This document shows, in pieces, positions 118 to 30,718 of a stretch of DNA of 64,000 nt. Position 1 is the stretch's first letter, and every line of letters starts with the position of its first letter. Below the pieces are notes generated by a model, which searched no databases, was not told where the DNA came from, and was given only the letters and a program-made list of their open reading frames with translations. Made by a program: the position numbers and the translations under genes. This DNA is from Desulfuromonadales bacterium (GTDB lineage: Bacteria; Desulfobacterota; Desulfuromonadia; Desulfuromonadales; SZUA-540). Location: positions 64,001 to 128,000 of the forward strand of contig JAWSUS010000004.1 in NCBI GenBank assembly GCA_033549025.1. Direction: 5' to 3'.

Positions 118-159
118 GCGTCTGCAATTTCTTTATTTGAGGCTGGGTACATACTGATC

Positions 160-3100
160 ATGCAGTCAATGCGGGCCGTATTGGAAAATTTGAGCATGTT
201 GGTCGACGCCTTCTCGGGGGATGGTGAGAAGCGTAGAGGGTGTAGATCGGAAACATGCGGGGGTTCTGCGGGCAACCGGGAAGGGCTTCAGGCCGGAACG
301 TCCGGTAAGGTAGAACGGTTCCCTTATCCTCGTTTTCTCAAGGGGTTGATGTCGGTCGGGTTCGCCATCTCTGTTTTTTTCCTGGCGATGGGGGGCTTTT
401 CGCCGGCCATGGCGGGGACGGAATTTTGCTCGGATTACAAAAAAAATCCTGACGACATGATTGCGGTTATCGATGGCAATGACCCCTACGTTCAGGCCAA
501 CCTGCCCAGCAGTTCCTTCGGGATTGACATGAACTGCGAATTTCGCAATTTCTCGATATCAACCATTTGGCCTAACGGCCTGACGCCTACCCTGAACTTT
601 TATACTCCGACCAAAACCGAAATCTATCTGGTTGCCTTTGACAATGTCTGGTTCTCCGGCAATATGGCGTGCGCCAACATCGATCACAAACTGTGGGTGG
701 TCAACTCCGAGGAAGGAGCATTCAGCGGGGCTTGCCAGGATATTATGATCCCGGCAGAAACCATCGACAAGCAGTCGCCTGCGGCCACCGCCAGCGTTGG
801 CGTGCCCTTCACTTATGAGCTCACCCTGCCGTCCATGAATTATCCCGCTGGCACGCCCTCATCCAACGATTTGGGAACGATCACCGTGGTGGATGATCTC
901 GCCGCTACCGGGGCCGATCTGACGCTGGTGAGTCTGAGTGCCTACAATAAAGGGACCGCGACCGCTATTCCGATCACGAATTTTTCCGACAGCACCGATA
1001 CCTATCTGCACTTTGCTTTGCCGAATATTAATGCCGGGGATCAGGTCGTTGTCGAGTTGACGGTCGTTCTCAACGATACGCCAGTCAACCAGACAGGCAG
1101 ACAGTTTACCAATACGGCAAAGTGGTCGTTTTCACGTTGGATCGATCTTGACGAAGATGGTATTCAGGATGCCAATGAATACTTTAATCCGCTGCCGGGC
1201 GAGTCAGGAATTTCGACGACGATGACCATCGTCGCACCGAATCTGGTGGTCAACAAGACAAGCAATACGACAGCCCTGAACGTGGGGGATCCGGCCACCT
1301 TCACCATCGATGTGCAGAACAGCGGGGGCGGCGCGGCCTGGAATGCGACCATCCTCGACCGGATTCCGACCGGCATGTGCGTCAACGACCCTACTGGCGT
1401 CACGCCAGGTCTGGATGCCAAACTCGTTGATGCCGACGGAACCACCTTGGTTAAAGACCTGGTTGCTGGTGCTGACTATACCGCCACCTACGCCGGCTGT
1501 GAACTTAGCCTGACTCTGACCGATAGCGCCCCGATTGCACCGGAACAGCGTCTGATCATCAACTACACGACCCAAATAGATCCCCTTGACAGCCCGGATT
1601 TTCCAGAGGACGGTGCTCTGTTGACGAACATTGCCGGGGCCACTCGCTGGTTCAGCGGGGATAGCGGGCATGAAGGTCGGCAGGAGTTCGTCAGGACACT
1701 TACCGACGGCACTCCGGGTGTGGTGGATTTCCAGGATAGCCAGACCGTCATGGCGGCCATGCATGGCTACTTTTTCGAGAAAACCGTCCAGAATCTGACC
1801 AGCTTGGCCAACCCCGCCACTATCGCGGCACCGGGTGATACTCTCCGCTACCGGCTGCGTGTTTTTAATGTCGATCAGAATATCCAGAGTATCGTCATCG
1901 ATGATTTGCTCGATCTGGACGTCTTCGATCCGTCCAGTTTTGACAATGTGGCGATTACGGCTGGAACTGGATACAACGCCAATTGGAGCTTCGAGCCTGA
2001 CACGGGTCACCTGCAAGTCAGCGGGGCGCCAACGTTAAACGTCGATGTGCATGGCGAACTCGTGGTGCATTTTGACATAACGCTGCGCTCAGATCTCGCC
2101 AACGATACCTCGGTGTCCAACCAGGCCAGTCTGACCGCCATTGATTTCAAGGCGTTAAGCGATGATCCCTACATTAACGGGGTGTCTTCGCCGGATGTGG
2201 CGGGAGACGAAGATCCGACCGTGGTGACAATCCAGACCCCGGGCCCCTTGGCCAAGGCGAATACCCAGACCACCGCTACAATTGGGGAGCGGTTCGAGTA
2301 CACCATCACTGTTCCCGCCATTCCCAGTACGGTGCCGCTCTACGACGTGCAGATTCTGGATACGCTGCCCGACAACCTGAAGTTTGTGAGCGCCCGGGTA
2401 GTTACGAGCGGTGCCTGGACCCTGGACAATATGGGCTCCGGCAACTCTCTGGTGCTGGAAGACCCCGTCACCGGCATCGATATCCCGACCGGAGGCCAGG
2501 CCAAGATTGCCATCACTGTGGAATTGCTGAACGCGAGTACCAACCAGGGAAGCGTGCTCTTCAGCAACAGTGCGACCTACACTTACAACCGGGCCAACGG
2601 TGTCGACAGTACGCAATTGCCCGGGGGCGGAAATGCCACCCCGAACATGACGGTGTTTGAACCACTCCTGGCGGCGGTCAAGACGGCCAGCTTCGCTGCC
2701 CCGGCCGGAAAACCGGCTTCCGATCCTGCCACGGTGGGTGATGTGCTGGAATATCAGGTAAGCATACGCAATAACGGTAAATCGACCGCCTTCGATACCA
2801 ACATTGTCGATACCCTGCCGGCAAATCTGGAGCCGCTCCCGGACTCCGCCACCGCCACAATTAACGGTGTCGCGATCAGTGATTTTGTCGTGAATCCGTC
2901 CACCCCTGCAGGATCGATCCTTGTTTGGGGGCGTGAAAATGGCGACGGCAGTCTCGATATCCCCGCCGGGCAGACCCTGGTGCTCACCTATCAGGTAACA
3001 GTGGTGGACGCCTCCTCGGTGAGTTCCTTCACCAACAGCGCCTATGTGGACTGGACTTCTCTTGACGAGGATTATCCCATAGATCCCTTCGATAATCCCG

Positions 3101-6100
3101 CGCCGGGCCGGGAACGCACCGGCACGGGGTGTGGCACGACCGGGATTGTTCAGCCGAACGACTATTGCAGCGGCCCGGCCAATTTCACGGTATACACGGT
3201 CGACAACACCGCCATCACCAAGTCGGTCTGGGCCGATTCCTATGCCGAGACCCCTGAGAGTACAGCCGATCCCATCCTTCGCGTCGGTGACACCGTTACC
3301 TATGATCTGACCCTTCATCTGCAGGAATATACCACGCGCCAGGTCGTGGTCGAGGACGTGCTGCCGGAGGGGCTGGTGCTGGAGAGCTTTGCGATCCTCG
3401 CTGGGACAAATTTTGCCTACTCGCCGGGGAGCCAGCCTGCGGCCGCGGCCACCGGTACCCTGCGTTGGGAATTCGGCGACATCATCAATACGCCGAACGG
3501 TATTTCGACCGACGATGATCTGGTCATCCGCTACACGGCCAGGGTGGTTATCGACGCGCCGGCCCTGGGGGTAAACTACGACCCCTCCAACCTGCTCGAC
3601 AACCAGGTGAAACTCTTTTATGCCGGTGGTGATCCGGTTGCCTATCCCGCCCGACTGACCGCGACCGCGCGAATTGACGTACGGCAACCCCTGATGACAG
3701 CCCTCAGCAAGACCGGGGCGACGGTCGGTCGCAGTGCCAGCGGCGATGGCTCCAGCGCCAACCCCTATCAGGTCGACATCGCCAACGATGTCATGCAGTT
3801 CCAGCTGCAGTCGTGCAACAACGGGCTGGCACCGGCCTATAACGTGCAGATCACCGACCTGCTCGCCAGCCAACTGGACGAAACCAGGCTGAGCACACCG
3901 GTCGTGACGCTGGGCGGCTCGGTGCTGGCTGCCGGGAGCGACTACACCTACACCCCGCCGAGCGGACGGGGGGGCGCCCTGGAGTTTGGGCTGAATACGC
4001 CAGTCGCGCCGGGCCAGTGCGCCCGGGTAGACTATACGATCGGTTTTTATACTGATCTGACCGCCGGAGAGGACTGGTCCAATCAGGCCAAGGTGACAGA
4101 GTACGAATCGCTGCCTGAAAATGGACGTCTTTATGCATCTACGGAGATGGCGCAGGTCTGGATGACCAATCAGTCCAGTGTTCAGCCGCTGGCAAAGGCC
4201 TTGTTTTCCTCGGCAACGGCGACCATCGGCGAGACCGTCACCTACCAGATCACCGTGCCGGGAACGCCGGTCAATGCCGCGCTCGACAACGTGGTGATTA
4301 CCGACACCCTCGATGCGGCACTGGTCTATGTCGGTGCCAGCGTATCCGCACCCTTTACGATGAACGCGAGTTCGTCCGCGCAGAATGTCAGCCTCGTTAT
4401 TGACCGGATTCCGGCCGGAGAACAGGCCGTCATTACCCTGACCGCCCGTGTCGCCAACAATGCCCAGGCCAATGCCGGTTACAGTTTTACCAATACGGCA
4501 GACTATACCTATACCGATATCCCGGCCGGGGCGGTGACCAGTGGCAGCAGTGCTCCCCTGACCATTGCCGAGCCGGCTGTCACCGTGAACAAGGCGGTCA
4601 CCCCTGACCGTGCGCCCACCGCCGGGGATATCCTGACCTATACGGTACAGATGGCCGCGGCGGCGGGATCTCAGTACTCCAGCGCCTATGATCTGGTTCT
4701 GACTGACTCGCTGGGGGCGGGGCTGGCCTACGTTGCGGGCAGTGCGTCGCTCAACGGCGTGGCAGTCGCTGACCCTGAAATTGACGGACAGGAGCTCTCC
4801 TGGCTTGGCGGCATCGATATCCCCGAGGGCACGACTGCCTCCCTGCTCTATCAGGTGCGCGTCCTCGACAGTGTCGCTATCGGCCAGATTCTGACCAACA
4901 GTGTCACTGCCCGCTGGACCAGCCTTGACGGCTCCAGTGCCGACGAGCGCACAGGCAGCGGCGTCGCCCCTGATGATTACGTGGCCACCGCCAGCACCAC
5001 CCTGGTCGTGGGCGACAGCACCACCTTCGCCAAGGTGCGGGTGAGCGACAGCTATGGCGAGACCGATAACAATGTTCGCATTGGCGATCTGATCGATTAT
5101 GAGTTGCGCTTGGGGCTGCAGGAAGGCACCCATACCGGCATCAGCGTCACTGATCAGCTACCCGTCGGCCTCCAGTATGTCGAAATGGTCAGTGCCACCT
5201 CCTTTGGCACGCCCCTGCTCACTCCCCCGGCTCCGGTCATCAATGGACAGACCCTGTCCTGGGCCTTGGGGTCGGTGACGAATCCCGTGGACGGTGATGC
5301 CAGCAACGATGTCCTGGTGCTCCGGTATCGGGTGCGCGTGTTAAAGGACACTCTGGCCCAGACGCCGGTCAACCAGACCCTGAGCAACAATGCCACCCTG
5401 ACCTACGAAGTGGCCGGAAATACGGTGTCGCGTTCTGGCAGCGCCAGTGTTGTCGCGCTGCAGCCGATGCTGACGGTGGCCAAGAGTGTGGCGCCAGCCG
5501 GCGGGGATACGGTCATCGGCGCCGGGGAAATCCTCACCTACACGGTCAATATCGCCAACAGCGGCGCCGCGCCGGCCTATGACACGATACTCATCGACAC
5601 CTTGCCCCTCGGACTGCGCCAGGGCGAGATCACTGTGTCGGCCATGACGCTGGTCAATAGCGGCAGCAGTCTGCCGCCCCTGGCGCCGAGCTATGAGCCG
5701 GCCACCGGTGTGGCCACCTGGAATTTCGATAGCAACAGCGCAAACACCTACACCATTCCTGCCGGCGAAACCCTGCGCGTCGTCTATACGGTCAGGGCCG
5801 ACGACGATCTCGGTCCTGGGCTGACCCTGACCAACACCGCCCAGGTCACGCTTTACCATTCCTTGGACGACGAAGCGGTGCCCTCGGGCACGACGGTCAA
5901 CGACCGCCAGGTCTACGGTCCCACCAATATGGCACAGCAGACCCTGACTTCACCGGAGCCAGGGGGGCTGCTCAAGGAGAACCCGTCGATTCCGGCTGTC
6001 ACCATCGGGCAGGAGTTCACCTATACCATCACCGTCCCGGCAGTGCCGCAGCCGATCGCCCTGCACGATGTGCGCATTTTCGATGATCTCGGCCTCACCG

Positions 6101-8706
6101 GCGTCGATTTGGGCCTGATCAGCATCAGCAAACTCGCTGGCACGCAACCCTGGAATCCGGTCAATACCGGATCCCCGACCAGTCTGGTGATCGAGGATGT
6201 CGGCGCCGGTATCGAAATTCCGGCCAATGAGCAGATCGTCATCGGGGTGACGGTGCGCCTGAACAATGTTGCTGCCAATAGCGCCGGTCTGACCTTCAGC
6301 AACACCGCCGCCTATACCTATAACCAGGTCGACGGTGATGCCGCGACGCTGAAGGAGGGGGGCAGCAATACCACCGTGGCCCTGCGGGTGGTGGAGCCCG
6401 CGGTGACTGTTCACAAGAGCGTGGTGCCCGAGACTCCTCCCCAAAACGGCGACATCCTGACTTATACCGTCACCTTGACGGCTGCGGCGGGCGCTGATTT
6501 TTCCGATGCCTTTGATACTACCCTGGTCGACATCCTGAGTCCGGAACTGCTCTATGTCAGCGACAGCGCGCGGGTGGGTGGCGTTTCTGTTGAACCGACC
6601 CTGAGCCATGACGGAGTCAACAACCTGCTTACCTGGGGCGGTGGCATTGATGTCGCGGCCGGAACAAGGGTCGATGTCACCTATCAGGTTCGGGTGAGTG
6701 ATACGGCCAATGCCGGCCAGACCCTGACCAACAGCGTGACGGCCCGCTGGAGCAGTCTTGACGGCAGCAGTCCCGACGAGCGCACCGGTAGCGGCGTCCC
6801 CGCCTATAACGATTACGTGGCCACGGCCGCTGCTCCACCGCTGACCATCCCGACTCCGACTCTGACGTTGCAGAAGAGTGTGGACAAGCCGATTGCCAAT
6901 CCCGGCGACCTGCTGCACTACACCCTGGCCATCCACAACCCGACAGCCATTCGGCTGGCCGATTTTTCCCTGATCGACGTGCTGGATCCGACCTTCTTCC
7001 AGACTGGCTCGATCCACATGCTCACCCTTCCCGATGGGGCCACGGCTACGGTCAGCGGCGACACCCTGACCATCACGAATTTGACTGTCACACCGAATGC
7101 CGACCTGACAATCGCGTTCGAGGCGCGCCTGAGAACGGACCTCAAGAGTGGTGCCGTTGTTCTGAACCAGGCGGAATTGCAGGGGCCCTGGCCGACACCT
7201 ATCAAGAGCGATGACCCGAGCGTGGACGGAACGGTGGACCCGACGCAGACCCTTATCCCGGCCGATGGCGTCGTCTATGATGTGGTGGAACGCAAACCGC
7301 TTGCCGGGGTAACGCTCACCATGCGCCTCGCCTCCACCGGGGCTGATCTGCCCGCAAGCTGTTTTGTCGATCCGTCCCAGCAGAACCAGCTGACACCGGC
7401 CGATGGCACCTACAAGTTCGATCTCACCTTTGGCCAGCCCGAATGTCCGGAAGGGGCGGACTATGTCCTTGCCGTCTCGGCGGTGCCCGCGAACTTCGTC
7501 GCGGAGCCTTCCTTGGTTCTGCCGCCTGCCAGCAGTACGGCCTATTCCGTGCCGGTGTGCGCCAACGACGCCATCCCTGACACGGCGCAATGCGAGGCGT
7601 CTGCCTCAGCGGTAGTCCCCACCACGGCGGATGCCACCTACTATCTGCAGCTCACCCTCGATTCAACGGCCAACCAGCTGTTCAATAACCTCATCCCGGT
7701 TGATCCCTATGTCGAGGAAAAGATCTATATCTCCAAGACGACGCCTCAGGTCAATGTCACCCGCGGCCAGCTGGTTCCCTACACGATTACCTTCGTCAAC
7801 ACCCTGCGCAGCACCCTACCTGAGCTGAGCCTGATCGATACGCTGCCCGCCGGCTTCAAATATGTGACCGGTTCTGCCCGGCTTGACGGCACACCGCTTG
7901 AGCCGCTGGTCAGTGGCCGGCAGCTGCAGTGGGACAACCTTGAGGTTGACTATCGGCAAAAGCACACCCTCCAGCTTCTGGCCATCGTGGGTGCCGGTGT
8001 AACCGAAGGCAAGTATGTCAATCAGGCGCAGCTGATCAAAGCCGACACGGGTGGGATCTTCTCTGAAGTGGCCACCGCCACGGTACGCGTCATCCCCGAT
8101 ACGACCTTCGACTGTACCGACGTGATCGGCAAGGTCTTTGACGACCGCAATCTCAACGGCGTTCAGGATGTTGGCGAGCCCGGCCTCTCCGGTGCCCGAC
8201 TGGTCACCGCCCGTGGGCTGATTGCCACCGCCGATGAGCATGGGCGTTTCCACCTGACCTGTGCGGCGGTTCCTGACGAAGACCGTGGCAGCAATTTCAT
8301 TCTTAAGCTGGATGATCGTAGCCTGCCGAGCGGGTATCGCATCACTACGGAAAATCCGCAGGTACAGCGCCTGACGCGCGGCAAAACCGCACGTTTTAAT
8401 TACGGTGCCACTGTTCATCGTGTGGTCAGCCTTGATCTTGCGGAAGGGGTTTTCGAGCCGGAGTCGACCGAAATGCGCCTTCAATGGATCCCAAGGATTG
8501 GCCTTTTGGTCGAAGAGTTGAAAAAAGCGCCTTCAGTCCTGCGGCTGTCGTATCTGGCAGATGTCGAATCGGAAGCGATCGTGCGTCAGCGTCTCAAAAC
8601 GCTCAAGCAGGAAATAGAGCGCCACTGGAAGTTGTCTAAGGGGGGTTACCGCTTGACGATTGAGACCGAAGTATTCTGGCGTCGTGGCGGGCCCATGTCG
8701 CGCTGA
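160..8706 (+). CDS. Giant secreted DUF11 / isopeptide-forming Ig-repeat surface protein (putative adhesin), 2848 aa
   Basis: Hydrophobic signal-like segment at aa ~64-85 (alternative start ATG 349). About 15 repeats begin xxK(S/T)...GD/E..TY and end (F/L)(T/S)N(T/S)A. A carboxypeptidase-regulatory-like segment and an SdrD-B-like segment (GKVFDDRNLNGVQDVGEPGL) lie near the C-terminus. Confidence 0.85.
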   Translation: MQSMRAVLENLSMLVDAFSGDGEKRRGCRSETCGGSAGNREGLQAGTSGKVERFPYPRFLKGLMSVGFAISVFFLAMGGFSPAMAGTEFCSDYKKNPDDMIAVIDGNDPYVQANLPSSSFGIDMNCEFRNFSISTIWPNGLTPTLNFYTPTKTEIYLVAFDNVWFSGNMACANIDHKLWVVNSEEGAFSGACQDIMIPAETIDKQSPAATASVGVPFTYELTLPSMNYPAGTPSSNDLGTITVVDDLAATGADLTLVSLSAYNKGTATAIPITNFSDSTDTYLHFALPNINAGDQVVVELTVVLNDTPVNQTGRQFTNTAKWSFSRWIDLDEDGIQDANEYFNPLPGESGISTTMTIVAPNLVVNKTSNTTALNVGDPATFTIDVQNSGGGAAWNATILDRIPTGMCVNDPTGVTPGLDAKLVDADGTTLVKDLVAGADYTATYAGCELSLTLTDSAPIAPEQRLIINYTTQIDPLDSPDFPEDGALLTNIAGATRWFSGDSGHEGRQEFVRTLTDGTPGVVDFQDSQTVMAAMHGYFFEKTVQNLTSLANPATIAAPGDTLRYRLRVFNVDQNIQSIVIDDLLDLDVFDPSSFDNVAITAGTGYNANWSFEPDTGHLQVSGAPTLNVDVHGELVVHFDITLRSDLANDTSVSNQASLTAIDFKALSDDPYINGVSSPDVAGDEDPTVVTIQTPGPLAKANTQTTATIGERFEYTITVPAIPSTVPLYDVQILDTLPDNLKFVSARVVTSGAWTLDNMGSGNSLVLEDPVTGIDIPTGGQAKIAITVELLNASTNQGSVLFSNSATYTYNRANGVDSTQLPGGGNATPNMTVFEPLLAAVKTASFAAPAGKPASDPATVGDVLEYQVSIRNNGKSTAFDTNIVDTLPANLEPLPDSATATINGVAISDFVVNPSTPAGSILVWGRENGDGSLDIPAGQTLVLTYQVTVVDASSVSSFTNSAYVDWTSLDEDYPIDPFDNPAPGRERTGTGCGTTGIVQPNDYCSGPANFTVYTVDNTAITKSVWADSYAETPESTADPILRVGDTVTYDLTLHLQEYTTRQVVVEDVLPEGLVLESFAILAGTNFAYSPGSQPAAAATGTLRWEFGDIINTPNGISTDDDLVIRYTARVVIDAPALGVNYDPSNLLDNQVKLFYAGGDPVAYPARLTATARIDVRQPLMTALSKTGATVGRSASGDGSSANPYQVDIANDVMQFQLQSCNNGLAPAYNVQITDLLASQLDETRLSTPVVTLGGSVLAAGSDYTYTPPSGRGGALEFGLNTPVAPGQCARVDYTIGFYTDLTAGEDWSNQAKVTEYESLPENGRLYASTEMAQVWMTNQSSVQPLAKALFSSATATIGETVTYQITVPGTPVNAALDNVVITDTLDAALVYVGASVSAPFTMNASSSAQNVSLVIDRIPAGEQAVITLTARVANNAQANAGYSFTNTADYTYTDIPAGAVTSGSSAPLTIAEPAVTVNKAVTPDRAPTAGDILTYTVQMAAAAGSQYSSAYDLVLTDSLGAGLAYVAGSASLNGVAVADPEIDGQELSWLGGIDIPEGTTASLLYQVRVLDSVAIGQILTNSVTARWTSLDGSSADERTGSGVAPDDYVATASTTLVVGDSTTFAKVRVSDSYGETDNNVRIGDLIDYELRLGLQEGTHTGISVTDQLPVGLQYVEMVSATSFGTPLLTPPAPVINGQTLSWALGSVTNPVDGDASNDVLVLRYRVRVLKDTLAQTPVNQTLSNNATLTYEVAGNTVSRSGSASVVALQPMLTVAKSVAPAGGDTVIGAGEILTYTVNIANSGAAPAYDTILIDTLPLGLRQGEITVSAMTLVNSGSSLPPLAPSYEPATGVATWNFDSNSANTYTIPAGETLRVVYTVRADDDLGPGLTLTNTAQVTLYHSLDDEAVPSGTTVNDRQVYGPTNMAQQTLTSPEPGGLLKENPSIPAVTIGQEFTYTITVPAVPQPIALHDVRIFDDLGLTGVDLGLISISKLAGTQPWNPVNTGSPTSLVIEDVGAGIEIPANEQIVIGVTVRLNNVAANSAGLTFSNTAAYTYNQVDGDAATLKEGGSNTTVALRVVEPAVTVHKSVVPETPPQNGDILTYTVTLTAAAGADFSDAFDTTLVDILSPELLYVSDSARVGGVSVEPTLSHDGVNNLLTWGGGIDVAAGTRVDVTYQVRVSDTANAGQTLTNSVTARWSSLDGSSPDERTGSGVPAYNDYVATAAAPPLTIPTPTLTLQKSVDKPIANPGDLLHYTLAIHNPTAIRLADFSLIDVLDPTFFQTGSIHMLTLPDGATATVSGDTLTITNLTVTPNADLTIAFEARLRTDLKSGAVVLNQAELQGPWPTPIKSDDPSVDGTVDPTQTLIPADGVVYDVVERKPLAGVTLTMRLASTGADLPASCFVDPSQQNQLTPADGTYKFDLTFGQPECPEGADYVLAVSAVPANFVAEPSLVLPPASSTAYSVPVCANDAIPDTAQCEASASAVVPTTADATYYLQLTLDSTANQLFNNLIPVDPYVEEKIYISKTTPQVNVTRGQLVPYTITFVNTLRSTLPELSLIDTLPAGFKYVTGSARLDGTPLEPLVSGRQLQWDNLEVDYRQKHTLQLLAIVGAGVTEGKYVNQAQLIKADTGGIFSEVATATVRVIPDTTFDCTDVIGKVFDDRNLNGVQDVGEPGLSGARLVTARGLIATADEHGRFHLTCAAVPDEDRGSNFILKLDDRSLPSGYRITTENPQVQRLTRGKTARFNYGATVHRVVSLDLAEGVFEPESTEMRLQWIPRIGLLVEELKKAPSVLRLSYLADVESEAIVRQRLKTLKQEIERHWKLSKGGYRLTIETEVFWRRGGPMSR

Positions 8707-8787
8707 ACCGGGCGTCATGGTGCCGGCTCCTGAGACAGGATCGGGTGCAATGGGATGTACATGCCTCTTAAGCATAGATGGAATTAA

Positions 8788-13938: not shown

Positions 13939-13986
13939 CTCGATGCTGTTCGAGATATCCAGACCGCAAACGGAAATTAACCACAG

Positions 13987-14526
13987 GTGACAGTTATGCT
14001 CAAAGTTTTGAAAATGATCATTGTGGGGTTAGCGGCAGTGCTGTTGATCCAGCCGGCCTTCGGGCAGGAAGTTTCCAAGGAAGAGATCAAGGGCCTGGAC
14101 GAACAGGTGCAGGAAATCAAGACGGATGTGCTAGGTATCGCGGCAGAACTGAGCCGTCTTGAAGAAAAGCTGCTCTATCCATCCGACACCCAGATCGCTA
14201 TTTTTGTGTCCCTGGCCGAGGGCGAAACCTTTCGGCTCGATGCGGTGGACATCGAACTCGATGGCAAGGAAGTCGCACATCACCTTTATACCTTCAAGGA
14301 ACTCGAAGCTCTGCAAAAAGGCGGGGTGCAGCGCATTTATGTGGGTAACGTCAGAACGGGAGAACATGCCCTGCAGGTTACGGTCAGCGGTAAGTCCGGG
14401 GGAGGTTCCGATTTCCGGAAGCAGGAGAGCTTTACCGTCAGCAAGGATATCGGTCCGCGTCTGGTCGGCCTGGTTCTGGCTGACACCGGCATCGGCAGCC
14501 GACCCATTACCTTGAAGGTTTGGTAG
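13987..14526 (+). CDS. Exported protein with N-terminal coiled coil and beta-rich domain; accessory gene of Agl-Glt-like clusters
   Basis: Signal peptide (AFG-Q), heptad segment LDEQVQEIKTDVLGIAAELSRLEEKL, operon position. Start may be ATG 13996. Confidence 0.65.
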   Translation: MTVMLKVLKMIIVGLAAVLLIQPAFGQEVSKEEIKGLDEQVQEIKTDVLGIAAELSRLEEKLLYPSDTQIAIFVSLAEGETFRLDAVDIELDGKEVAHHLYTFKELEALQKGGVQRIYVGNVRTGEHALQVTVSGKSGGGSDFRKQESFTVSKDIGPRLVGLVLADTGIGSRPITLKVW

Positions 14527-14529
14527 TTC

Positions 14530-16419: not shown

Positions 16420-19400
16420 AGCGATTGCGACTGATTTTTATAGCCGTACCTGTGTTACTTGCCGCCTGCCAATCAGGCAGCAGCAGGGAAACGATCGCCC
16501 AGTTGCGCCATGTAAAGATCGATATTCAAGAAGAGGCAATCGCTGGCGGCCTTGAAAAAGCCATGGAGAGTTATCGGCGTTTTCTGGAAGAAACGCCCGA
16601 ATCGGCGTTGACACCAGAGGCGATTCGGCGTCTGGCTGACTTGAAAATTGAGCGGGAGTATGGTTTCGCCAGCGAAGCGGACACCAACCGGGATGACAGC
16701 GAGGTTTCGGTGTTGCCCGCTCCGGAGAGGGCTCAGGGGGCGAAGATCACCGCACCGACCGCGGAAGAAGAGCCGCTCGCTGCCCGGATTGAAACGCAGA
16801 CGGATTTTGAACAGCGGGCGACCCAGGCTGAATCCATCGCCCCTTCCGAAACGAGCGCTGAGGGGCTTCCCGGAGAGATTGAAGAGCTCGAACGGGCTGG
16901 GGCGCGGGAGGCGATTGAACTGTATCAGAAGTTGCTGGCCAAATATCCCCTGTATGAGCGCAACGACCAGGTATTGTACCAGATGTCCAGAGCCTATGAA
17001 GAATTGGGACAGGTCGAAGAGGCCATGGAAGTGATGAATCGCCTGGTCCGAGACTTTCCACACTCCCGTTATATCGACGAGGTGCAGTTCAGGCGTGCGG
17101 AGTTCTTTTTTACCCGCAAACATTATCTCGACGCGGAAGAATCCTACAAACGTGTTGTGGAAATGGGCGTCAGTTCCACATATTTCGAGCTCGCGCTATA
17201 CAAACTGGGATGGGCCTATTACAAACAGGAACTCTACGAAGAGGCCGTGCATAATTTCGTTGCCTTGCTGGATCACAAGGTCTCTAGGGGGTATGACTTT
17301 GCCCAGTCCCACGATGATCTCGAGCGCAAGCGTATTGACGATACCTTCCGCGTCATCAGCCAGAGTTTCTCGTACCTTGGCGGCGCCGATTCCGTCATGG
17401 AATACCTCGATAATTACGGCAAACGCAGCTATGAGGATCTCCTCTTCAGCAATTTAGGTGAATTCTATTTCGAAAAGCGGCGTTACAGCGATTCCGCGGC
17501 CGCTTACAATGCCTTTATCAGTCGCAATCCTTACCATCGCGTGTCGCCGCAGTTCCACATGCGCGTCATTGAGATTCACATGGCCGGAGGCTTCCCGACC
17601 CTGGTCATCGAGTCCAAGAAATCCTTTGCCCGCAATTACGGACTCAAGGCTGACTACTGGGAATATTTCGAACCGACGGATCGTCCCGATGTTATGGGAC
17701 TTCTGAAAGGCAATTTGACTGATCTGGCCCAGCATTATCATGCGTTGTACCAGGATCCCAAACAGGTCAAGGAAAAGGGGGAGAACTTCAGGGAGGCGCA
17801 GCACTGGTACGAGGAGTTTCTGGTCTCATTCCCGCAGGATGTTGAATCGCCGGGGATCAACTATCAATTGGCTGAGCTGCTGCTGGAGAATCATTCCTTT
17901 GCCCGGGCGGCGGTGGAATACGAAAAGACGGCCTACAACTACCCCCGTCACGACAAATCGTCCGCCGCTGGTTACGCGGCCATCTATGCCTATCGCGAAT
18001 ATCTGCGCGTTGCTGCCCCGGAGGAGAAGAGCAGGGTCAGACGCGAGACCGTGCGCAGTTCGCTTACCTTTGCCGAGACGTTTCCCGAGCACGAAAAGGC
18101 TGCCATCGTCCTGGGAGCGGCTGCGGATGATCTGTTTGATATGAAGGACTTTGAACAGGCTCTTGCCGCGGCACGCCGACTGCTGGAGGTGTTCCCTGAA
18201 GCCGCCCAAAAGGTCCGTCGCTCGGCCTGGATCGTCGTCGGACATTCCTGCTATGAGCTTGAGCGTTACGCCGAGGCTGAAGCCGGCTACGTGCAGGTTC
18301 TCGCTCTGCTTTCCCCCGAGGACAAGAATCGCCCCGGCTTTATCGACAATCTGGCGGCGGCCATTTACAGGCAGGGGGAGGAGGCCAATGTCCGGCAGGA
18401 TTATCGTGCAGCCGCCGATCATTTTCTGCGTGTCGGACGCATGGCACCGGCTTCCAAAATCCGGGAGAATGCCGAATACGATGCTGCGGCCGCCCTGATT
18501 CAGCTCAAGGACTGGAACGCCGCCGCCACGGTGCTGGTCGGTTTTCGGGAACTTTTTCCCGGGCACGCGCTGCAGCCCGAAGTGACCAAAAAAATAGCCT
18601 TTGTTTACAGGGAAGACGGTCAGCTGGCCATGGCTGCCGGCGAATACGAACGTGTCGAGCGGGAATCCAAGGATGACGAGGTAAGACGAGGCGCTCTCCT
18701 GCTGGCCGCGGAGCTGTATCAGCAGGCCGGGGACAGCCGACAGACGCTTGTGGTCTATCGACGTTTTGTGACTTATTTCCCCCAGCCCGTCGAGATGAAT
18801 CTGGAAATGCGCAACAAAATCGCGGTCATTCTGAAGGAGGAAGGGGATCAGAAAAACTACTTGCTCGAGCTTAAAGATATCGTCGCCATTGATGCAGGCG
18901 CGGGGCGTGAACGGACCGCAAGAACGCGCTATCTGGCCGGCACGGCTGCGCTTGTCTTGGCCGAGCAGACTTTTGACCGGTTCGTGGAAGCACGGCTGGT
19001 CGCGCCCTTCGAGGTCAATTTGCGCAAGAAGCAGGAATTACTGAAGGCCTCGACTCAGGCCTTCAATAAGCTGATCGAGTATGAGGTTGGCGAGGTCACA
19101 GCGGCGGCCACATTTTATCTGGCCGAGATTTACGCGCACTTCAGCAAGGCCTTGATGGAGTCCGAGCGTCCTTCCGGCCTGAATGCCCTGGAGCGGGAAG
19201 AGTATGAACTGGCGCTTGAAGAGCAGGCGTATCCTTTTGAGGAAAGAGCGATTCAGATCCACGAGAAAAATCTGGAGCTGATCATGATCGGCATCTATAA
19301 CCCCTGGATTGAGCAGAGCCTCGCCAAGCTGGCCGTGTTCGTGCCGGCACGTTATGACAAGTCGGAAGTTTCGGCCGAGGTCATTGCTTCTCTGGAGACA

Positions 19401-19604
19401 TACAGCTTCGAGATCGAGAAACCGGTATTGCCGCCCCCCGTGCCCGAGGTCGAGAATGTGCCAGCCGCAGAAACGACTGACTCAACGGTGGAGGGTGGCC
19501 TCGCCGAGGATGTAGACGGACATGACGACTTGGGCACCTCCGATACGGTGCCGCCATCGCAGGAGCCTTCCCCTCAAGAGGAAGCCCAGGCGCCTTCGGT
19601 GTGA
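16416..19604 (+). CDS. Large TPR lipoprotein, GltD/AgmU-like
   Basis: Lipobox LLAAC; many TPRs (DQVLYQMSRAY, EVQFRRAEFFF, ALYKLGWAYY); C-terminal motif YELALEEQAYPFEERAIQIHEKN typical of GltD-like proteins; acidic disordered tail. Confidence 0.75.
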   Translation: MKRLRLIFIAVPVLLAACQSGSSRETIAQLRHVKIDIQEEAIAGGLEKAMESYRRFLEETPESALTPEAIRRLADLKIEREYGFASEADTNRDDSEVSVLPAPERAQGAKITAPTAEEEPLAARIETQTDFEQRATQAESIAPSETSAEGLPGEIEELERAGAREAIELYQKLLAKYPLYERNDQVLYQMSRAYEELGQVEEAMEVMNRLVRDFPHSRYIDEVQFRRAEFFFTRKHYLDAEESYKRVVEMGVSSTYFELALYKLGWAYYKQELYEEAVHNFVALLDHKVSRGYDFAQSHDDLERKRIDDTFRVISQSFSYLGGADSVMEYLDNYGKRSYEDLLFSNLGEFYFEKRRYSDSAAAYNAFISRNPYHRVSPQFHMRVIEIHMAGGFPTLVIESKKSFARNYGLKADYWEYFEPTDRPDVMGLLKGNLTDLAQHYHALYQDPKQVKEKGENFREAQHWYEEFLVSFPQDVESPGINYQLAELLLENHSFARAAVEYEKTAYNYPRHDKSSAAGYAAIYAYREYLRVAAPEEKSRVRRETVRSSLTFAETFPEHEKAAIVLGAAADDLFDMKDFEQALAAARRLLEVFPEAAQKVRRSAWIVVGHSCYELERYAEAEAGYVQVLALLSPEDKNRPGFIDNLAAAIYRQGEEANVRQDYRAAADHFLRVGRMAPASKIRENAEYDAAAALIQLKDWNAAATVLVGFRELFPGHALQPEVTKKIAFVYREDGQLAMAAGEYERVERESKDDEVRRGALLLAAELYQQAGDSRQTLVVYRRFVTYFPQPVEMNLEMRNKIAVILKEEGDQKNYLLELKDIVAIDAGAGRERTARTRYLAGTAALVLAEQTFDRFVEARLVAPFEVNLRKKQELLKASTQAFNKLIEYEVGEVTAAATFYLAEIYAHFSKALMESERPSGLNALEREEYELALEEQAYPFEERAIQIHEKNLELIMIGIYNPWIEQSLAKLAVFVPARYDKSEVSAEVIASLETYSFEIEKPVLPPPVPEVENVPAAETTDSTVEGGLAEDVDGHDDLGTSDTVPPSQEPSPQEEAQAPSV

Positions 19605-19626
19605 CACAGGTAAGGATTAACATTCG

Positions 19627-20352
19627 ATGGATCTCATGATGGGGACAAAACGGAAAAGAATGGCCTCCTGCCTCCGCTGGTCGGCAAGCCGCGTCACCTT
19701 GGTGGCGGTGTTGGGTGGGATGGCACTTGGCGGATGTGCCGCCGTAGGAAAGAGCAAGGAGGCCATTGTGGAACCCTCACCCGTAGTGGCTGTTGAGGCG
19801 ATGGCCGAATCCGCCGGTCCCGGTGTGCGGCATTTTACCGATGGACGGGAAGGTTTCGTGATCTCGGAACCGTCCACGCTTAATACGCGATTGCGCGCGG
19901 AATTCGATGAGGCCGTGACTCTGATCCAGGAAACTCAGTATGACCAGGCCATCGACGCTTTGAAGAGGGTGGTGGCGCAGGCCCCGGAGATCTCGGCGCC
20001 CCGCATCAATCTCGCCATTGCCTACAGACTGTCTAATCAACCGGAGCAGGCTGAGTCGGAGTTGAAAACGGCCTTGGAGTTGATAGAAGGGCATCCGGTG
20101 GCTAGCCATGAATATGGTTTACTACTGCGCCAAGCCGGACGTTTTGCCGAGGCACGGGTAATATACGAAAACGCCCTGGACCAGTTTCCCGAATATTATC
20201 CTTTACACAGAAATCTAGGCATTTTGTGCGACCTGTATCTGAAGGATTTGGCCTGTGCCGTGAGCCATTACGAAAGCTACAGCAAGGCTGTACCCAAAAA
20301 CGACCAGGTAAAGCTCTGGATTGCTGATCTGAATGCCCGGTTGGGACGCTAG
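19627..20352 (+). CDS. TPR lipoprotein, GltE/AglT-like
   Basis: Lipobox LGGC; TPRs (NLAIAYR, HEYGLLLRQAGRF, NLGILCDLYL). Confidence 0.75.
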   Translation: MDLMMGTKRKRMASCLRWSASRVTLVAVLGGMALGGCAAVGKSKEAIVEPSPVVAVEAMAESAGPGVRHFTDGREGFVISEPSTLNTRLRAEFDEAVTLIQETQYDQAIDALKRVVAQAPEISAPRINLAIAYRLSNQPEQAESELKTALELIEGHPVASHEYGLLLRQAGRFAEARVIYENALDQFPEYYPLHRNLGILCDLYLKDLACAVSHYESYSKAVPKNDQVKLWIADLNARLGR

Positions 20353-20418
20353 CCGGCTGTGGTGAAAAGCATTTTGGGCGAGACTTGGAAGGAAGTTGTT
20401 CGCTTATTGGAGTTGTCA

Positions 20419-20727
20419 ATGAATCGAAAACTGATTGTCTGCTGTTGTCTGGTTCTGCTGTGGGTCAGCCAGGCCATGGCGGAAGAACAGCAGGCCGCTG
20501 GGTCAACTGCAAATGGTGAAGACGGGGCCAAAATGATTTCCGGCATGTCGATTGTCGGCAATGATGAAGCGCCGAAGTCGCTCTTTATCGTTCCATGGAA
20601 AAGTTCCGAATTGGGCGTCGAAACCAGTCTGACTCGAACCTTGGACGAGCGAGATGTGCCAGTGGATAGGGATGTCTTTATGCGCCAGCTGGATTTTTAT
20701 GAAGTCAGTACCGGAGGAAACAACTGA
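20419..20727 (+). CDS. Small exported protein, GltF-like, 102 aa
   Basis: GGAG RBS before ATG 20419; signal peptide (AMA-E); motif GMSIVGNDEAPKSLFIVPW; lies between the GltE-like gene and the motor genes. Confidence 0.65.
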   Translation: MNRKLIVCCCLVLLWVSQAMAEEQQAAGSTANGEDGAKMISGMSIVGNDEAPKSLFIVPWKSSELGVETSLTRTLDERDVPVDRDVFMRQLDFYEVSTGGNN

Positions 20728-20857
20728 AGACCAACCCTGTTTCAGGAGGATAATAGATGGAGTGAGCAGTGCGGACGCTACAAGCGATTTATGGAGTAAC
20801 CAGGGTTTTTGCGGGTTTGATGCACGCTATATATCAGGCAAAAAAGGAGCTAACGTC

Positions 20858-21493
20858 ATGAACACTATTGTTAAATTTATCATGGAAGGGGGCGTTTTCA
20901 TGTACCCCATTTTACTCGTTGGCGCTGCCGGCGCGGCCATCGGGGCAGAACGTTGGTGGTATCTCAGGCGCACCCGGAATGCCAGTCGCGCCATGTGGAA
21001 AGAACTGCAACCGGTGTTGGCCGAGGGGGATTTCGACAAGGCCCGCGAGATGACCACCGACGACAAGGCAGCCATCTCCCAGATGCTGTCCATGGGGCTG
21101 GCTGTGCAAGGAGCGGTCCGACGGCGTCAGGATATTGAAATCGCCATGGAAGAGAGCCTGATGGAAATTACGCCTCAGCTGGAAAAACGAACCCCCTATG
21201 TCGGGCTGCTGGCCAATATCTCGACCTTGCTAGGTCTTCTCGGGACCATCATGGGTCTGATCCAGGCGTTTACCGCCGTCGCCAATGCCAATCCTGCCGA
21301 AAAAGCTGACCTGCTTTCTGCCAGTATCTCGACAGCCATGAATACTACGGCTTTTGGGCTGATCGTCGCAATTCCTCTGCTGATTCTGCATGCCATGTTG
21401 ACAACTACGGCCGGCCAGATCCTCGATAGCCTCGAGATGGCCTCGGTCAAGGCACTGAACAGTATGTCCAGGGCATCCAAACACCAGTATTAA
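20858..21493 (+). CDS. MotA/TolQ/ExbB family proton channel (AglR-like)
   Basis: AAGGAG RBS before ATG 20858; three TM segments with TLLGLLGTIMGLIQAF and AMNTTAFGLIVAIP motifs. Confidence 0.92.
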   Translation: MNTIVKFIMEGGVFMYPILLVGAAGAAIGAERWWYLRRTRNASRAMWKELQPVLAEGDFDKAREMTTDDKAAISQMLSMGLAVQGAVRRRQDIEIAMEESLMEITPQLEKRTPYVGLLANISTLLGLLGTIMGLIQAFTAVANANPAEKADLLSASISTAMNTTAFGLIVAIPLLILHAMLTTTAGQILDSLEMASVKALNSMSRASKHQY

Positions 21494-21507
21494 TAAGCGA
21501 GTTTATT

Positions 21508-21993
21508 ATGGCTAGACGTCGCAAAAGAGGATCGCAAGAAGCGCCAGAACTGGATATCACCACATTCCTTAATTTGATGGTGGTGTTGATCCCGTTTCTG
21601 CTCCTTAGTGCCGTGTTCTCCCGCATAACGATCATGGAACTGAGCGTGCCGACGGCGGCAGGTGGAGGGGCAGCAAATAAACCGAGCTTCACCATAGAGG
21701 TCATTGTCCGCAGCACCGGTTTCGAGCTGGCCAACGGTACGCAGGTGGTGGCGGCCGTTCCAAAAGCCAATGACGAGTATGACCTGAAAAAGCTGTCACA
21801 AATGCTCATCAATCTGAAGAACGATTATCCTGAAAAAGAGGATGCGACCGTTTTAGTGGAACCCAGGATCGAATACAACTACCTGATTCAGATCATGGAT
21901 ACCGTGCGCGGCACCGAAGTCATACTGCCGGGGGAATCCGAAGTGCAGAAAATGGCTCTTTTCCCGACCATTTCGATTGGAGACGCGCCATGA
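21508..21993 (+). CDS. ExbD/TolR family protein (AglQ/AglS-like) with Asn at the canonical Asp position
   Basis: ELDITTFLNLMVVLIPFLL TM helix; C-terminal IEYNYLIQIMDTVR motif. Confidence 0.88.
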   Translation: MARRRKRGSQEAPELDITTFLNLMVVLIPFLLLSAVFSRITIMELSVPTAAGGGAANKPSFTIEVIVRSTGFELANGTQVVAAVPKANDEYDLKKLSQMLINLKNDYPEKEDATVLVEPRIEYNYLIQIMDTVRGTEVILPGESEVQKMALFPTISIGDAP

Positions 21994-22484
21994 GTGAGAA
22001 CAGACGCATAAAAAGGATGGCGCGCAGGAACAAAAAAACACCTGGGCTGAACTTAACGTCCTTGATGGATGTATTCACCATTCTGGTCTTTTTTCTGCTG
22101 TTCAACTCTGGGGCCGGTGAAGTGCTGGAAGCCCCCAAGACCATCAAGTTACCTGATTCCTCGGTTGAATCCAAACCCAGGGAAACGGTCATTATCATCG
22201 TCGCTCCGGACACGGTGCTGGTCCAGGGTGAAGAGGTGGCCTCCACGCCAGAAGTCCTTGCTTCTTCCAGCGATATGATTGGCGGGGTCGCGGAGCGCCT
22301 GAATCAACTTGAACGCAATATTATCGGGGATGCTACCCGAGCTGCTGTTGACAATAAAGAAGTCACCATCCTTGCGGACAAGGCCATCCCTTTTGTCGTG
22401 CTCAAAAAAATCATGACTACCTGCACGGGTGCCGGATACGGAAAGATTTCTTTGGCGGTCAACCAGAAACCTTCGGAAAGCTAG
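21990..22484 (+). CDS. ExbD/TolR family protein (AglQ/AglS-like)
   Basis: LNLTSLMDVFTILVFFLL TM helix; ILADKAIPFVVLKKIMTTCTGAGYGKISLA C-terminal motif; ATGA overlap with the previous gene. Confidence 0.92.
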   Translation: MSENRRIKRMARRNKKTPGLNLTSLMDVFTILVFFLLFNSGAGEVLEAPKTIKLPDSSVESKPRETVIIIVAPDTVLVQGEEVASTPEVLASSSDMIGGVAERLNQLERNIIGDATRAAVDNKEVTILADKAIPFVVLKKIMTTCTGAGYGKISLAVNQKPSES

Positions 22485-22496
22485 TGTGGATATATT

Positions 22497-23906
22497 GTGA
22501 CTACTTCCTTACTATCAGAAGAATTGGAGCCCCTGAAGGCGGAAATAGAGCAAGTTCAGCTTCGGCTTGCGGCATTGAAAAGCGAGTTGGTTGCCGCAGA
22601 CACGGACGCCGAGGTCTTTGCTCTTGAGCGGCAACGCTTTGATGCCTTGCGGGACGTCTGCAATGCGATCGACCGCCTGGATGAATTTGAAGCTGTCGAA
22701 CTCTTTTGGGAGGGATTGTCGACCCATGCTGACGGCGTTCAGCATTTAGGCCGGCTGCGCGAGCGTATTGACCAGTTTGAGGGAGAAATCCAGGGGGTCC
22801 TTGACCGGCAGCAATCGCTGCAACGTCAGATTCGGCACTGTTTGGATCAACTGGAGATTCTGGACGAAGAAGTAAGCCAAGCCTACGCCCGCGAAGAGCG
22901 ACGACAGGACGAACTCGTCGTTGAGAGAGAGGCCTCGCCGATTCCATATCGACCGATGATCATGCCCTGGAGCAATGACAGCGAGAGCGAAAAGCGATAC
23001 CGCTTCGCCCTGCTCATTGCCCTGGTCCTGTCGCTTGGCTTCGGAGGAATCGTCAATGTTTGGAAATTGCCGGAACCCGATCTGTCGGCACCGCTCGTCA
23101 TCCCGGAGCGCTTGGCGATGCTGGTCAAGAAACAGCAGGAAAAGCCGAAGGAGGTGCCCAAGCCCAAGCAGAAAAAAGAAGAAATAAAGCCGGAAGAACA
23201 AGTCGCGGAAACGCCGAAGGAGCAGAAGGTCAAGGCGACTCCTGCCGAACGGGTGGCGGCGCGCACCAAAGTGGAAAGTACCGGTGTCATGGCCTTTAAG
23301 AGCAGCTTCAAGGATCTCATGGATGAAACTCCGGTGGCCGGTCTTGGTCTTGAAGCCCGTCTGAGCAACACTCCTGCCGCACCGGCAGGTTCAGCACAGG
23401 CGAGCCGTTCCTTGGTAGCGATGGCGGCGGGAAGTGGTTCCGGCAGTGGTGGAATAAGCAATGCTGCTGTGAGCACCAATCTTGGCCGTGGTGCCGGCGG
23501 TGGCGGTGGAAGTGGCATTGGTCGTGAGGGTGTCGCTTTCACGCGGGTCCAGAGTGATATCGCCAGCCTGGCAGGCGAAGAGGCACGGCCGCTCAGTGAA
23601 GGAGCGGGGCCGGCGCGCACCGACGAAGAGATTCAAATTCTGTTTGATCGTTACAAGGCGGCGCTTTACCGGATATATAACAAGGAATTGCGCAAAGATC
23701 CGACCCTGCGAGGAAAGATGGTCCTGCGCATTACCATCGAGCCGAGTGGTGAGGTTTCCGCCTGTAAGGTGGAGTCGAGCAATATCAACTCCCCTGAATT
23801 GGAAAAACAGGTAGTTGCGCGGGTCGCGAGGATCAATTTCGGACCCAAGGAAGGGGTGCCCAAGACGACCATCCTTTATCCGATCGATTTTCTCCCCGCC
23901 GGATAA
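22497..23906 (+). CDS. TonB-like energy transducer with AgmX/PglI (GltG)-type TonB C-terminal domain
   Basis: Cytoplasmic coiled coil, single TM helix (ALLIALVLSLGFGGIV), Pro/Lys/Glu-rich and Gly-rich linkers, C-terminal RTDEEIQ..IYNKELRKDPTLRGKMVLRITIEPSGEV domain. Confidence 0.85.
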   Translation: MTTSLLSEELEPLKAEIEQVQLRLAALKSELVAADTDAEVFALERQRFDALRDVCNAIDRLDEFEAVELFWEGLSTHADGVQHLGRLRERIDQFEGEIQGVLDRQQSLQRQIRHCLDQLEILDEEVSQAYAREERRQDELVVEREASPIPYRPMIMPWSNDSESEKRYRFALLIALVLSLGFGGIVNVWKLPEPDLSAPLVIPERLAMLVKKQQEKPKEVPKPKQKKEEIKPEEQVAETPKEQKVKATPAERVAARTKVESTGVMAFKSSFKDLMDETPVAGLGLEARLSNTPAAPAGSAQASRSLVAMAAGSGSGSGGISNAAVSTNLGRGAGGGGGSGIGREGVAFTRVQSDIASLAGEEARPLSEGAGPARTDEEIQILFDRYKAALYRIYNKELRKDPTLRGKMVLRITIEPSGEVSACKVESSNINSPELEKQVVARVARINFGPKEGVPKTTILYPIDFLPAG

Positions 23907-30693: not shown

Positions 30694-30718
30694 CGGTATG
30701 AAGGATACGGAGGTAATT

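Follow-up and report, generated by a model that had tools for sequence, protein, structure and literature searches.

An Agl-Glt core locus with a giant isopeptide-repeat fibre and a triple-OmpA barrel protein: a candidate envelope machine for surface attachment in a Desulfuromonadales bacterium

Background

The proton-driven machine of Myxococcus gliding has an ancestral core that also occurs in non-gliding Proteobacteria, where Luciano et al. (2011; PMC3169522) described a core comprising gltC, gltD, gltE, gltG, aglR, aglQ, aglS and one extra gene, with unknown function. By that account the core alone is unlikely to power motility (PMC3169522); it was called a "standalone machinery" by Wartel et al. 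(2013; PMC3858216), and its function outside the myxobacteria was described as unknown, with secretion merely guessed, by Islam et al. (bioRxiv 2020.07.22.216333). In models of the Myxococcus machine, the adhesin is held by outer-membrane barrels to which GltC binds (PMC11761067). DUF11, a domain found in fibrillar adhesins, was shown in turn to be of the isopeptide type (bioRxiv 2025.04.25.650565). The present work concerns a stretch of 64,000 nucleotides (nt) from a Desulfuromonadales bacterium (assembly GCA_033549025.1, contig JAWSUS010000004.1, positions 64,001 to 128,000 of the forward strand; hereafter the window), in which a block of eleven genes, g1 to g11, joins such a core to a giant putative fibre (g1) and a giant outer-membrane protein (g2). 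Comparative genomics shows that g1 and g2 form an outer-membrane module belonging to one clade of these cores.

Results

The motor side corresponds to the published core

By homology, the nine genes g3 to g11 (13987-23906) are the published Agl-Glt "core complex", and the identity of the motor is in this sense already known. A preliminary description of the window had noted a likeness to the Agl-Glt core, and direct orthology to the published Geobacter copy bears it out. The g4 protein shares 74% identity with a 629-amino-acid (aa) protein from Geotalea uraniireducens, ABQ27248.1, which is included in the supplementary trees of Luciano et al.; that paper gives Gura_3077 (629 aa) as the homologue of GltC (MXAN_2541) (PMC3169522). 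The genes g4 to g11 match Gura_3077 to Gura_3070 in order and size, the lengths of GltC/D/E/G and AglR/Q/S being 629/1062/241/469/211/161/164 aa here and 629/1108/240/484/211/166/166 aa there. All seven core genes are clustered in the block, and an extra small gene, g7, lies between gltE and aglR, where it is kept in other cores; the place of the published extra gene was deduced from a gap at Gura_3074 in the available locus list (PMC3169522). On homology, g8 to g10 are assigned as an AglR/Q/S-type proton channel, g11 as a GltG-type arm and g4 to g6 as a GltC/D/E scaffold. The g3 gene, for which no Pfam or NCBIfam family matched, stands directly before gltC in all 80 close loci (the best 80 of 113 found) and in 39 of 40 further loci, the single miss falling at a contig end. 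Homologues of g3 and GltC are also present in the cultured strain Geotalea uraniireducens Rf4.

The fibre/barrel pair is conserved with the core

Among the close loci with enough flanking sequence, the barrel gene is directly upstream of the core in 67 of 68 and the fibre tail in 51 of 52; the sole upstream exception, L080, carries the pair in divergent orientation. We surveyed 201 genomes of the window's class and found GltC in 39. A close barrel lies beside GltC, by coordinates, in 38 of these 39 (two of the 38 are broken), all 38 close barrels come with GltC, and a single genome, G041, has GltC without the barrel. Among 400 scored genomes of Gammaproteobacteria, with two to three candidates scored per genome, a GltC match was obtained in 76, nine of them at 41% identity or more; the fibre and then the barrel follow directly after gltG in eight of the nine, and the ninth, G169, is split by a contig end. 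The preliminary description had proposed attachment to minerals or electrodes as the role of the block in a metal or sulfur reducer, but this role is not specific, because the block occurs also in Gammaproteobacteria, Nitrospirota and Desulfobacterales.

In a quick maximum-likelihood tree of GltC (66 rows, midpoint root), all 33 rows linked to the pair form one clade (SH-aLRT 100) together with G041 and L085, the latter a short contig whose genome has the barrel elsewhere. Within this clade the downstream order of the pair branches basally and the other two orders, upstream and divergent, are nested; the link between pair and motor has therefore survived two rearrangements. Conservation of the adhesin and barrel with the motor, on which the preliminary description had staked its proposal, thus extends across genomes and even through changes of gene order.

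In 31 more distant core loci, neither g1 nor g2 was found within the fetched stretch. The slot before g3 is occupied there by TIGR04565 barrels with a propeller protein (13 loci), LamG proteins (six loci) or VWA-FHA proteins (two loci), a grouping made partly by sizes of open reading frames (ORFs) alone, with ten loci ungrouped and some of those, such as G326, having no module in view. TIGR04565, which we take to cover GltA/B, is accompanied in these loci by TlpA, DUF3570 and ApbE. Since GltC binds adhesin-holding barrels in the Myxococcus model, the slot next to g3-gltC looks like the place for a module worked by the motor.

Some of the distant loci deserve separate mention. Before gammaproteobacterial cores, a recurring module (L101, 5539-12298; L111, 7817-14982) comprises a propeller protein with a hydrazine-synthase-alpha-like domain, an SH3-barrel protein, a TIGR04565 barrel, a TlpA thioredoxin, DUF4266, DUF3570 and often ApbE, a set that puts redox partners next to a motor. 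In L115 (10695-12350) and L124 (7667-9223), a protein with VWA and FHA domains directly precedes g3-gltC and is reminiscent, by its VWA domain, of the adhesin CglB and, by its FHA domain, of GltG.

The fibre and the barrel protein

The g1 protein has a long N-terminal region followed by a signal peptide that ends near residue 85, and its start codon is unsure. A cysteine-containing tip is followed by 15 CLIPPER/DUF11 repeats and by a tail comprising a CLIPPER domain, an SdrD_B domain and an OmpA-like domain. The Lys, Asp and Asn triad is intact in all 15 repeats, as determined by eye and by script, and the modelled last repeat superposes on the CLIPPER structure 9ifr with Z 13.0 and a root mean square deviation (rmsd) of 3.0 over 120 aligned residues. 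In alignments, orthologues range from about 1200 to 5000 aa and the last 450 residues are conserved. Surface exposure and a role in adhesion are predicted from these features.

The final domain of g1 was modelled as beta-alpha-beta-alpha-beta and is probably a degenerate OmpA-type periplasmic anchor. It aligns with OmpA in register by hhalign at E 0.008-0.03 and a probability of just 2-5%, and its hmmsearch comparison with OmpA was not significant; its Atlas neighbours are OmpA proteins at 0.86, which we treat as a lead only. Fold searches of the whole tail were dominated by the Ig-like domains and thereby left the last domain unprobed. The OmpA-like reading is supported by natural fusions in which DUF11, SdrD_B, a true OmpA domain and the barrel lie in a single chain, with the OmpA domain at the place of the g1 tail. 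Two such fibre-OmpA-barrel proteins are encoded in L150 and L171 (396-9425); in L171 the next gene is FecR-like and apparent signalling genes follow. A second family (L172, 7737-18997; L173; L175) consists of DUF11-OmpA proteins of about 2000 aa that match just the first third of the g2 barrel region and are preceded by three or four small exported genes with terminal beta-strand motifs, possibly a pilus-like system. The window's own genome encodes a second large adhesin candidate, a 1910-aa protein with OmpA and inverse-autotransporter domains (contig C2; L174, 1867-7599).

The g2 protein contains three OmpA C-terminal domains, two Ig-like domains and a predicted barrel of about 38-40 strands, two of them in a low-confidence stretch, with a beta-sandwich inserted near residues 982-1075. 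Its first OmpA domain keeps the Asp and Arg that we take to be the canonical motif. Residues 535-1716 were modelled from 64 sequences (pLDDT 70.6, pTM 0.66), and the strands would presumably close into one barrel. In the structure comparison the top match was FimD (Z 15.1, rmsd 7.4, 349 aligned), followed by SlpA (Z 12.7, rmsd 11.3) and SprA (Z 11.4, rmsd 12.7, with 490 aligned residues the longest); none is a close solved match, which does not in itself prove a new fold. Searches of the barrel profile against PDB sequences gave nothing useful, no match between g2 and SprA was obtained in Pfam, NCBIfam or PDB sequences, and a search with PF14349 (SprA_N) was uninformative because it gave no signal in any control. 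An Atlas search with the barrel returned mostly unnamed clusters. A TonB-dependent transporter was rejected as the identity of g2, which has no plug or receptor family match in Pfam and about 38-40 predicted strands as against 22. In public records, homologues are labelled "OmpA family" or "flagellar motor protein MotB"; the latter annotation is carried by a full-length homologue from the cultured Desulfuromonas soudanensis (ALC15225.1). Predicted 38-strand barrels have been mentioned for Deinococcus (PMC9388160).

A predicted c-di-GMP switch precedes the block

On a stretch extended beyond the window, the leader matches Rfam RF03168 (67 bits, E 6e-13; L001, 13952-14030) and RF01051 (65.9 bits), above the gathering cut-off; Rfam is silent on the window alone because the aptamer begins about 48 nt upstream of it. 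A G stands at the specificity site of the aptamer, which by the G20 rule, as we assume it, points to cyclic di-GMP (c-di-GMP) as the ligand rather than cyclic GMP-AMP. The 5' arm of the terminator could base-pair with the strand immediately 3' of the aptamer, and five of six folded leaders have an intact aptamer and an antiterminator fold; the riboswitch is accordingly predicted to be an ON switch by its modelled folds. One to three aptamers of the c-di-GMP-I clan precede the fibre gene in seven of eight fetched relatives, and none was found before g3 in eight gammaproteobacterial loci or in the stretches of G045 and G041. Terminator scans gave a number of sites no higher than in shuffled sequences, and promoter scans were not clearly above shuffles.

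Two or three tandem riboswitches of this type stand before the fibre gene in L153, L156, L157 and L158, and in L156 and L158 a tRNA gene just upstream of them is a possible integration site. The window's own genome contains five further c-di-GMP-I riboswitches (contigs C17, C21, C32 and C50).

Organization of the block

The ORF listing of the window gives eleven ORFs at 160-23906, all in the same direction (Table 1), as the preliminary description had it, together with its gene order. Its domain calls also hold in Pfam and NCBIfam (eight DUF11 stretches with TIGR04226, three OmpA domains, the TPRs, MotA/ExbB, two ExbD and a TonB_C/AgmX-PglI tail), as do its riboswitch leader, confirmed by the Rfam match, its closing terminator, for which a terminator-like hairpin is present 3' of the block, and the absence of a TonB-dependent receptor, no such family having matched any of the eleven genes in the Pfam and NCBIfam scans. 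The ATGA overlaps that it counted as several are real and number just two (16416-16419 and 21990-21993).

Table 1. Features of the block in window coordinates
Feature	Position	Strand	Description
c-di-GMP-I clan riboswitch aptamer, 3' end	1..30	+	starts ~48 nt before window
Riboswitch intrinsic terminator	73..119	+	15-pair stem (73-109) and T run, conserved in relatives
g1	160..8706	+	predicted 2848-aa fibrillar adhesin
g1 C-terminal beta-alpha-beta-alpha-beta domain	8419..8679	+	probably degenerate OmpA-type periplasmic anchor
g2	8788..13938	+	1716-aa outer-membrane protein, predicted barrel from ~11206
g3	13987..14526	+	exported coiled-coil and beta-rich protein, Gura_3078 orthologue
g4	14530..16419	+	GltC homologue, periplasmic TPR scaffold, 629 aa
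g5	16416..19604	+	GltD homologue, TPR lipoprotein, 1062 aa; order and size as Gura_3076
g6	19627..20352	+	GltE homologue, TPR lipoprotein, 241 aa; size as Gura_3075
g7	20419..20727	+	small exported protein, in place of the core's "additional gene"
g8	20858..21493	+	AglR/ExbB-like proton-channel subunit, 211 aa, three membrane helices; PF01618, TolQ and ExbB structures
g9	21508..21993	+	AglQ-position ExbD-like subunit, 161 aa, Asn22 at conserved Asp site
g10	21990..22484	+	AglS-position ExbD-like subunit, 164 aa, Asp27
g11	22497..23906	+	GltG-like transducer, 469 aa
Terminator-like hairpin closing the block	23957..23992	+	hairpin at 23966-23985

Most likely start codons other than those of the longest ORFs were assigned to g7 (20419) and to the ExbB-like gene (20858), the latter giving the length of Gura_3073. 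The GC content of the block is 57.6% against 57.9% for the genome, in which no second close copy of the block genes was found. A single sediment metatranscriptome study yielded short RNA contigs over 26, 25 and 9 of 30 bins, with the junctions g3/g4, g5/g6, g6/g7 and g7/g8 bridged among the contigs listed; they were not used as evidence because DNA carry-over is possible and a single transcript is not visible in them.

Lipoboxes are visible in g5 (LLAAC) and g6 (ALGGC), and g6 matches NF033758 at E 9e-5, under the cut-off. The small g7 protein has a conserved strand motif and a C-terminal motif in alignment and no family match in Pfam or NCBIfam; it resembles GltF in size and layout only, and a GltG-family search of 301 genomes of the phylum yielded no GltF for comparison with it. 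Asp27 of g10, which the preliminary description had singled out for mutation, is the conserved acid, being present in all 77 rows with the residue. At the equivalent site of g9, Asn is found in 79 and Asp in nine of 88 rows with the residue, counted on best hits of which some are cross-hits to the other ExbD subunit. This Asn/Asp asymmetry of the two subunits is seen in close and distant cores alike and is unusual for 5:2 motors; a few loci, for example L014, seemingly have Asp in both. The g11 protein has a cytoplasmic coiled coil where the FHA domain would be, one membrane helix (170-188), a long linker and a TonB-C/AgmX-PglI tail. It matches NF033768 above cut-off, and its match to NF033760 (60 bits against a cut-off of 650) spans only profile positions 400-649, the periplasmic half of GltG. 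No family match to GltA, B, H, K, I, J or CglB was obtained among the eleven genes, to which this search was confined, and the match of the GltJ model to g11 is limited to the shared tail. Nothing useful came from searching PDB sequences with g4 and g11.

A pel-type exopolysaccharide operon lies after the block (24376-36439), with GH114 and deacetylase, PelB barrel, PelD GGDEF, glycosyltransferase and PelG genes, and with an extra 243-aa TPR gene inside it (27173-27904). No match to pelA, pelB or pelF was found in loci L012 to L151, including 48 loci with at least 1.2 kb after gltG. A link between the block and pel was rejected, the operon not being conserved beside the block in relatives.

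Discussion

The proposed machine and its alternatives

We lean, with some reserve, towards a single envelope machine, encoded by the block and serving surface attachment, in which the motor gates, tensions, repositions or releases the fibre rather than enabling its export. In favour of it count the linkage of core and pair through changes of gene order, the other modules that mostly fill the slot in distant cores, the three OmpA domains of motor-adjacent barrels, the covariation in rate and the single-chain fusions of fibre tail and barrel, the fast GltC and g3 of G041, the joint divergence of GltC and triple-OmpA part in G835 and G890, and the two broken copies in G874 and G895. In this machine, g1 and g2 would cross the inner membrane by Sec, and g2 would form a very wide barrel that its OmpA domains fasten to the cell wall. 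The isopeptide-locked N-terminal stalk of g1 would exit through this barrel, and the conserved tail would be retained there and in the periplasm. If the Myxococcus model is taken as a guide, proton flow would set GltG in motion, and GltG, by way of GltD, g7 and GltC/g3, would pull on the part of g2 that faces the periplasm; this pull may gate, tension, reposition or release the fibre. Physical coupling between motor and barrel is inferred from gene linkage and analogy. The motor would be an add-on to an export route able to exist alone, and the c-di-GMP-type ON riboswitch would switch the block on in the sessile state. If c-di-GMP is indeed the ligand, an ON switch favours attachment over movement. 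The preliminary description had allowed for motility, which appears less likely than attachment given this predicted switch and a GltG without FHA. It had also proposed that the motor energises export of the adhesin; export as such is unlikely to need the motor, since some genomes in which searches found no GltC and no GltD also carry fibre and barrel pairs.

A wider proposal is more doubtful, and we offer it tentatively: g2 could be the channel of an undescribed secretion and display route, with a barrel at least the size of SprA through which isopeptide-locked fibres pass in the folded state and an OmpA-type stopper in the periplasm to retain them. In one clade this route would have been coupled to the Agl-Glt core, which has an ExbD pair with one aspartate, so that the fibre is pulled on or released; the core would be a general motor for interchangeable outer-membrane modules, and adhesin handling would be ancestral, before gliding.

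Several observations weigh against the attachment machine. Eight genomes in which GltC and GltD both went undetected (G337, G183, G310, G342, G240, G307, G045 and G028) have fibre and barrel pairs or fusions with no or one OmpA domain, and seven genomes of the class, G045 included, have a barrel at 41-46% and no GltC. Two motorless fibres exceed 4300 aa, which rules out adhesin size as the reason for the motor. In G326, a divergent barrel with three OmpA domains lies roughly 66 kb away from a distant core, and in G332, where the only core found is a distant one, a fragment of a motor-type barrel is present. All linked loci belong to one clade and are therefore not independent. Rates of evolution were compared branch by branch (41 taxa, 76 branches), and they covary in three blocks by position, a pattern that may also reflect physical closeness: the fibre tail with the barrel (rho 0.55), g3, GltC and GltD with one another (0.43-0.68), and AglR with the AglS-like subunit and GltG (0.41-0.55). 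Between modules, covariation is weak (GltC gives rho 0.18, p 0.11, with the triple-OmpA part, -0.18 with the barrel and 0.18-0.22 with the OmpA and Ig parts of g2, against 0.46-0.68 in within-module controls). GltC of G835 and G890 diverged fast with the barrel still adjacent. To these points are added the weakly supported OmpA nature of the fibre tail and the closure of the g2 barrel, taken from a model with pLDDT 70.6 and pTM 0.66.

The motorless pairs, the positional blocks of covariation and the single clade would all be expected if the pair and the motor were co-regulated neighbours, with the pair working alone and travelling with the motor in a mobile c-di-GMP-controlled block, both serving the sessile state without contact. 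We regard this as rather unlikely, because the adjacency has held through two rearrangements, all 38 close barrels have the motor, and the core is without a barrel of its own while sister cores mostly hold another outer-membrane module in the same slot. The genome lacking the pair, G041, has a fast GltC (z -7.7) and a fast g3 (-4.0) with normal AglR/Q/S (-0.7 to -0.9), an argument weakened by the fast GltC of G835 and G890, where the barrel is in place; in these two, low values for both GltC (38-40%) and the triple-OmpA part (48-49%) go with 70-71% for AglR. Complex prediction for GltC (20-629) with g2 (25-380) gave a score of 0.00 in two runs and was counted neither way. In G874 and G895 (L193, L194), stops or frame breaks are seen in both barrel and motor-side genes, reflecting joint decay or sequencing error.

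A role in assembly or envelope integrity overlaps with the attachment machine, the sole difference being the part that is moved. The motor would act on the peptidoglycan-bound OmpA domains of g2 as Tol-Pal does on Pal, freeing or moving them so that the giant barrel is inserted or positioned or the outer membrane around it stays intact, and the fibre would be affected only indirectly. The extra OmpA domains are confined to motor-linked barrels, with three domains in all six motor-adjacent barrels checked and none or one in all eight motorless ones; the first OmpA domain of g2 keeps the canonical Asp and Arg, and g8 is equally close to TolQ and ExbB. A patchy, accessory distribution (39 of 201 genomes) and riboswitch control nevertheless suit a surface function better, and we hold this role to be unlikely.

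Still less probable is a new surface-motility machine, in which the fibre, held by its barrel, would be moved along the cell by the motor just as CglB is by Agl-Glt. The homology of the core is complete, an isopeptide stalk suits load (bioRxiv 2025.04.25.650565) and the slot is equivalent to that of the GltAB-CglB module (PMC11761067). Nevertheless, g11 lacks the FHA part of GltG, the block has no gene for GltI, GltJ or GltA/B/H/K, the OmpA domains that bind peptidoglycan would pin the barrel, the switch is predicted to be ON with c-di-GMP, and Luciano et al. doubted that the core drives motility alone. Import or polysaccharide handling, with the motor unplugging the barrel for uptake of macromolecules caught by the fibre or spreading Pel polysaccharide as Agl-Nfs does spore-coat polymer, could draw on the ExbB/ExbD/TonB-type parts, on the inserted beta-sandwich as a possible plug and on pel genes beginning at 24376, but is very improbable given motorless barrels, no TonB-receptor plug or barrel family match, and no pelA, pelB or pelF match in L012 to L151.

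Comparison with known systems

The attachment machine proposed here shares with the Agl-Glt core all seven genes and the extra small gene, in the same order and at sizes near-identical to Gura_3070-3077 (PMC3169522). No partner of that core is named in the available text of PMC3169522 and PMC3858216, whereas here g3, the giant fibre and the giant barrel are fixed partners. In common with the Myxococcus Agl-Glt gliding and Agl-Nfs spore-coat machines, the block has the AglRQS motor, a GltG arm with a TonB-C tail and the GltC/D/E scaffold (PMC11761067, PMC3858216), and an adhesin gene is likewise tied to outer-membrane barrels. It differs from them in lacking GltA/B/H/K, CglB, GltI and GltJ, in a GltG without FHA, in one very large OmpA-anchored barrel that replaces three small ones, and in an adhesin that is a fibre of 2200-5000 aa.

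The CLIPPER adhesin of Acinetobacter silvestris (B9T28_05395; PDB 9ifr) shares with g1 the tandem Lys-Asp-Asn isopeptide repeats and ends in an OmpA-like anchoring domain, as g1 probably does (bioRxiv 2025.04.25.650565); in the available main text of that paper the words "barrel" and "secretion" are absent, and no export route or motor is given. For export driven through an outer-membrane barrel by an ExbB/ExbD/TonB motor, Oar provides a precedent (PMC6434023). Oar is a TonB-dependent transporter, whereas g2 has no such family match and what would be handled here is a giant fibre that the cell retains.

The type IX protein SprA and the ushers FimD and PapC resemble the predicted barrel of g2 in being very large and having an inserted domain. 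The SprA barrel has 36 strands and is worked by a proton motor. Compared with g2, SprA and FimD give rmsd values of 12.7 and 7.4 at about 9% identity with no sequence-profile match; the SprA system uses a different motor family, and the OmpA anchors are a feature of g2.

A literature search that left most subscription titles outside found no paper in which DUF11 fibres, such a barrel and the Agl-Glt core are brought together. The function of the core outside the myxobacteria has been open since 2011, and the block names a candidate cargo, an outer-membrane partner and a signal, giving the motor a concrete and testable candidate job. The core is rarely standalone, sister clades carrying different outer-membrane modules, and the barrel family, with or without the motor, may be an unnamed export route for widespread Gram-negative DUF11 adhesins. 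What is new in this locus is the fibre/barrel partner pair, an undescribed outer-membrane module of a known motor.

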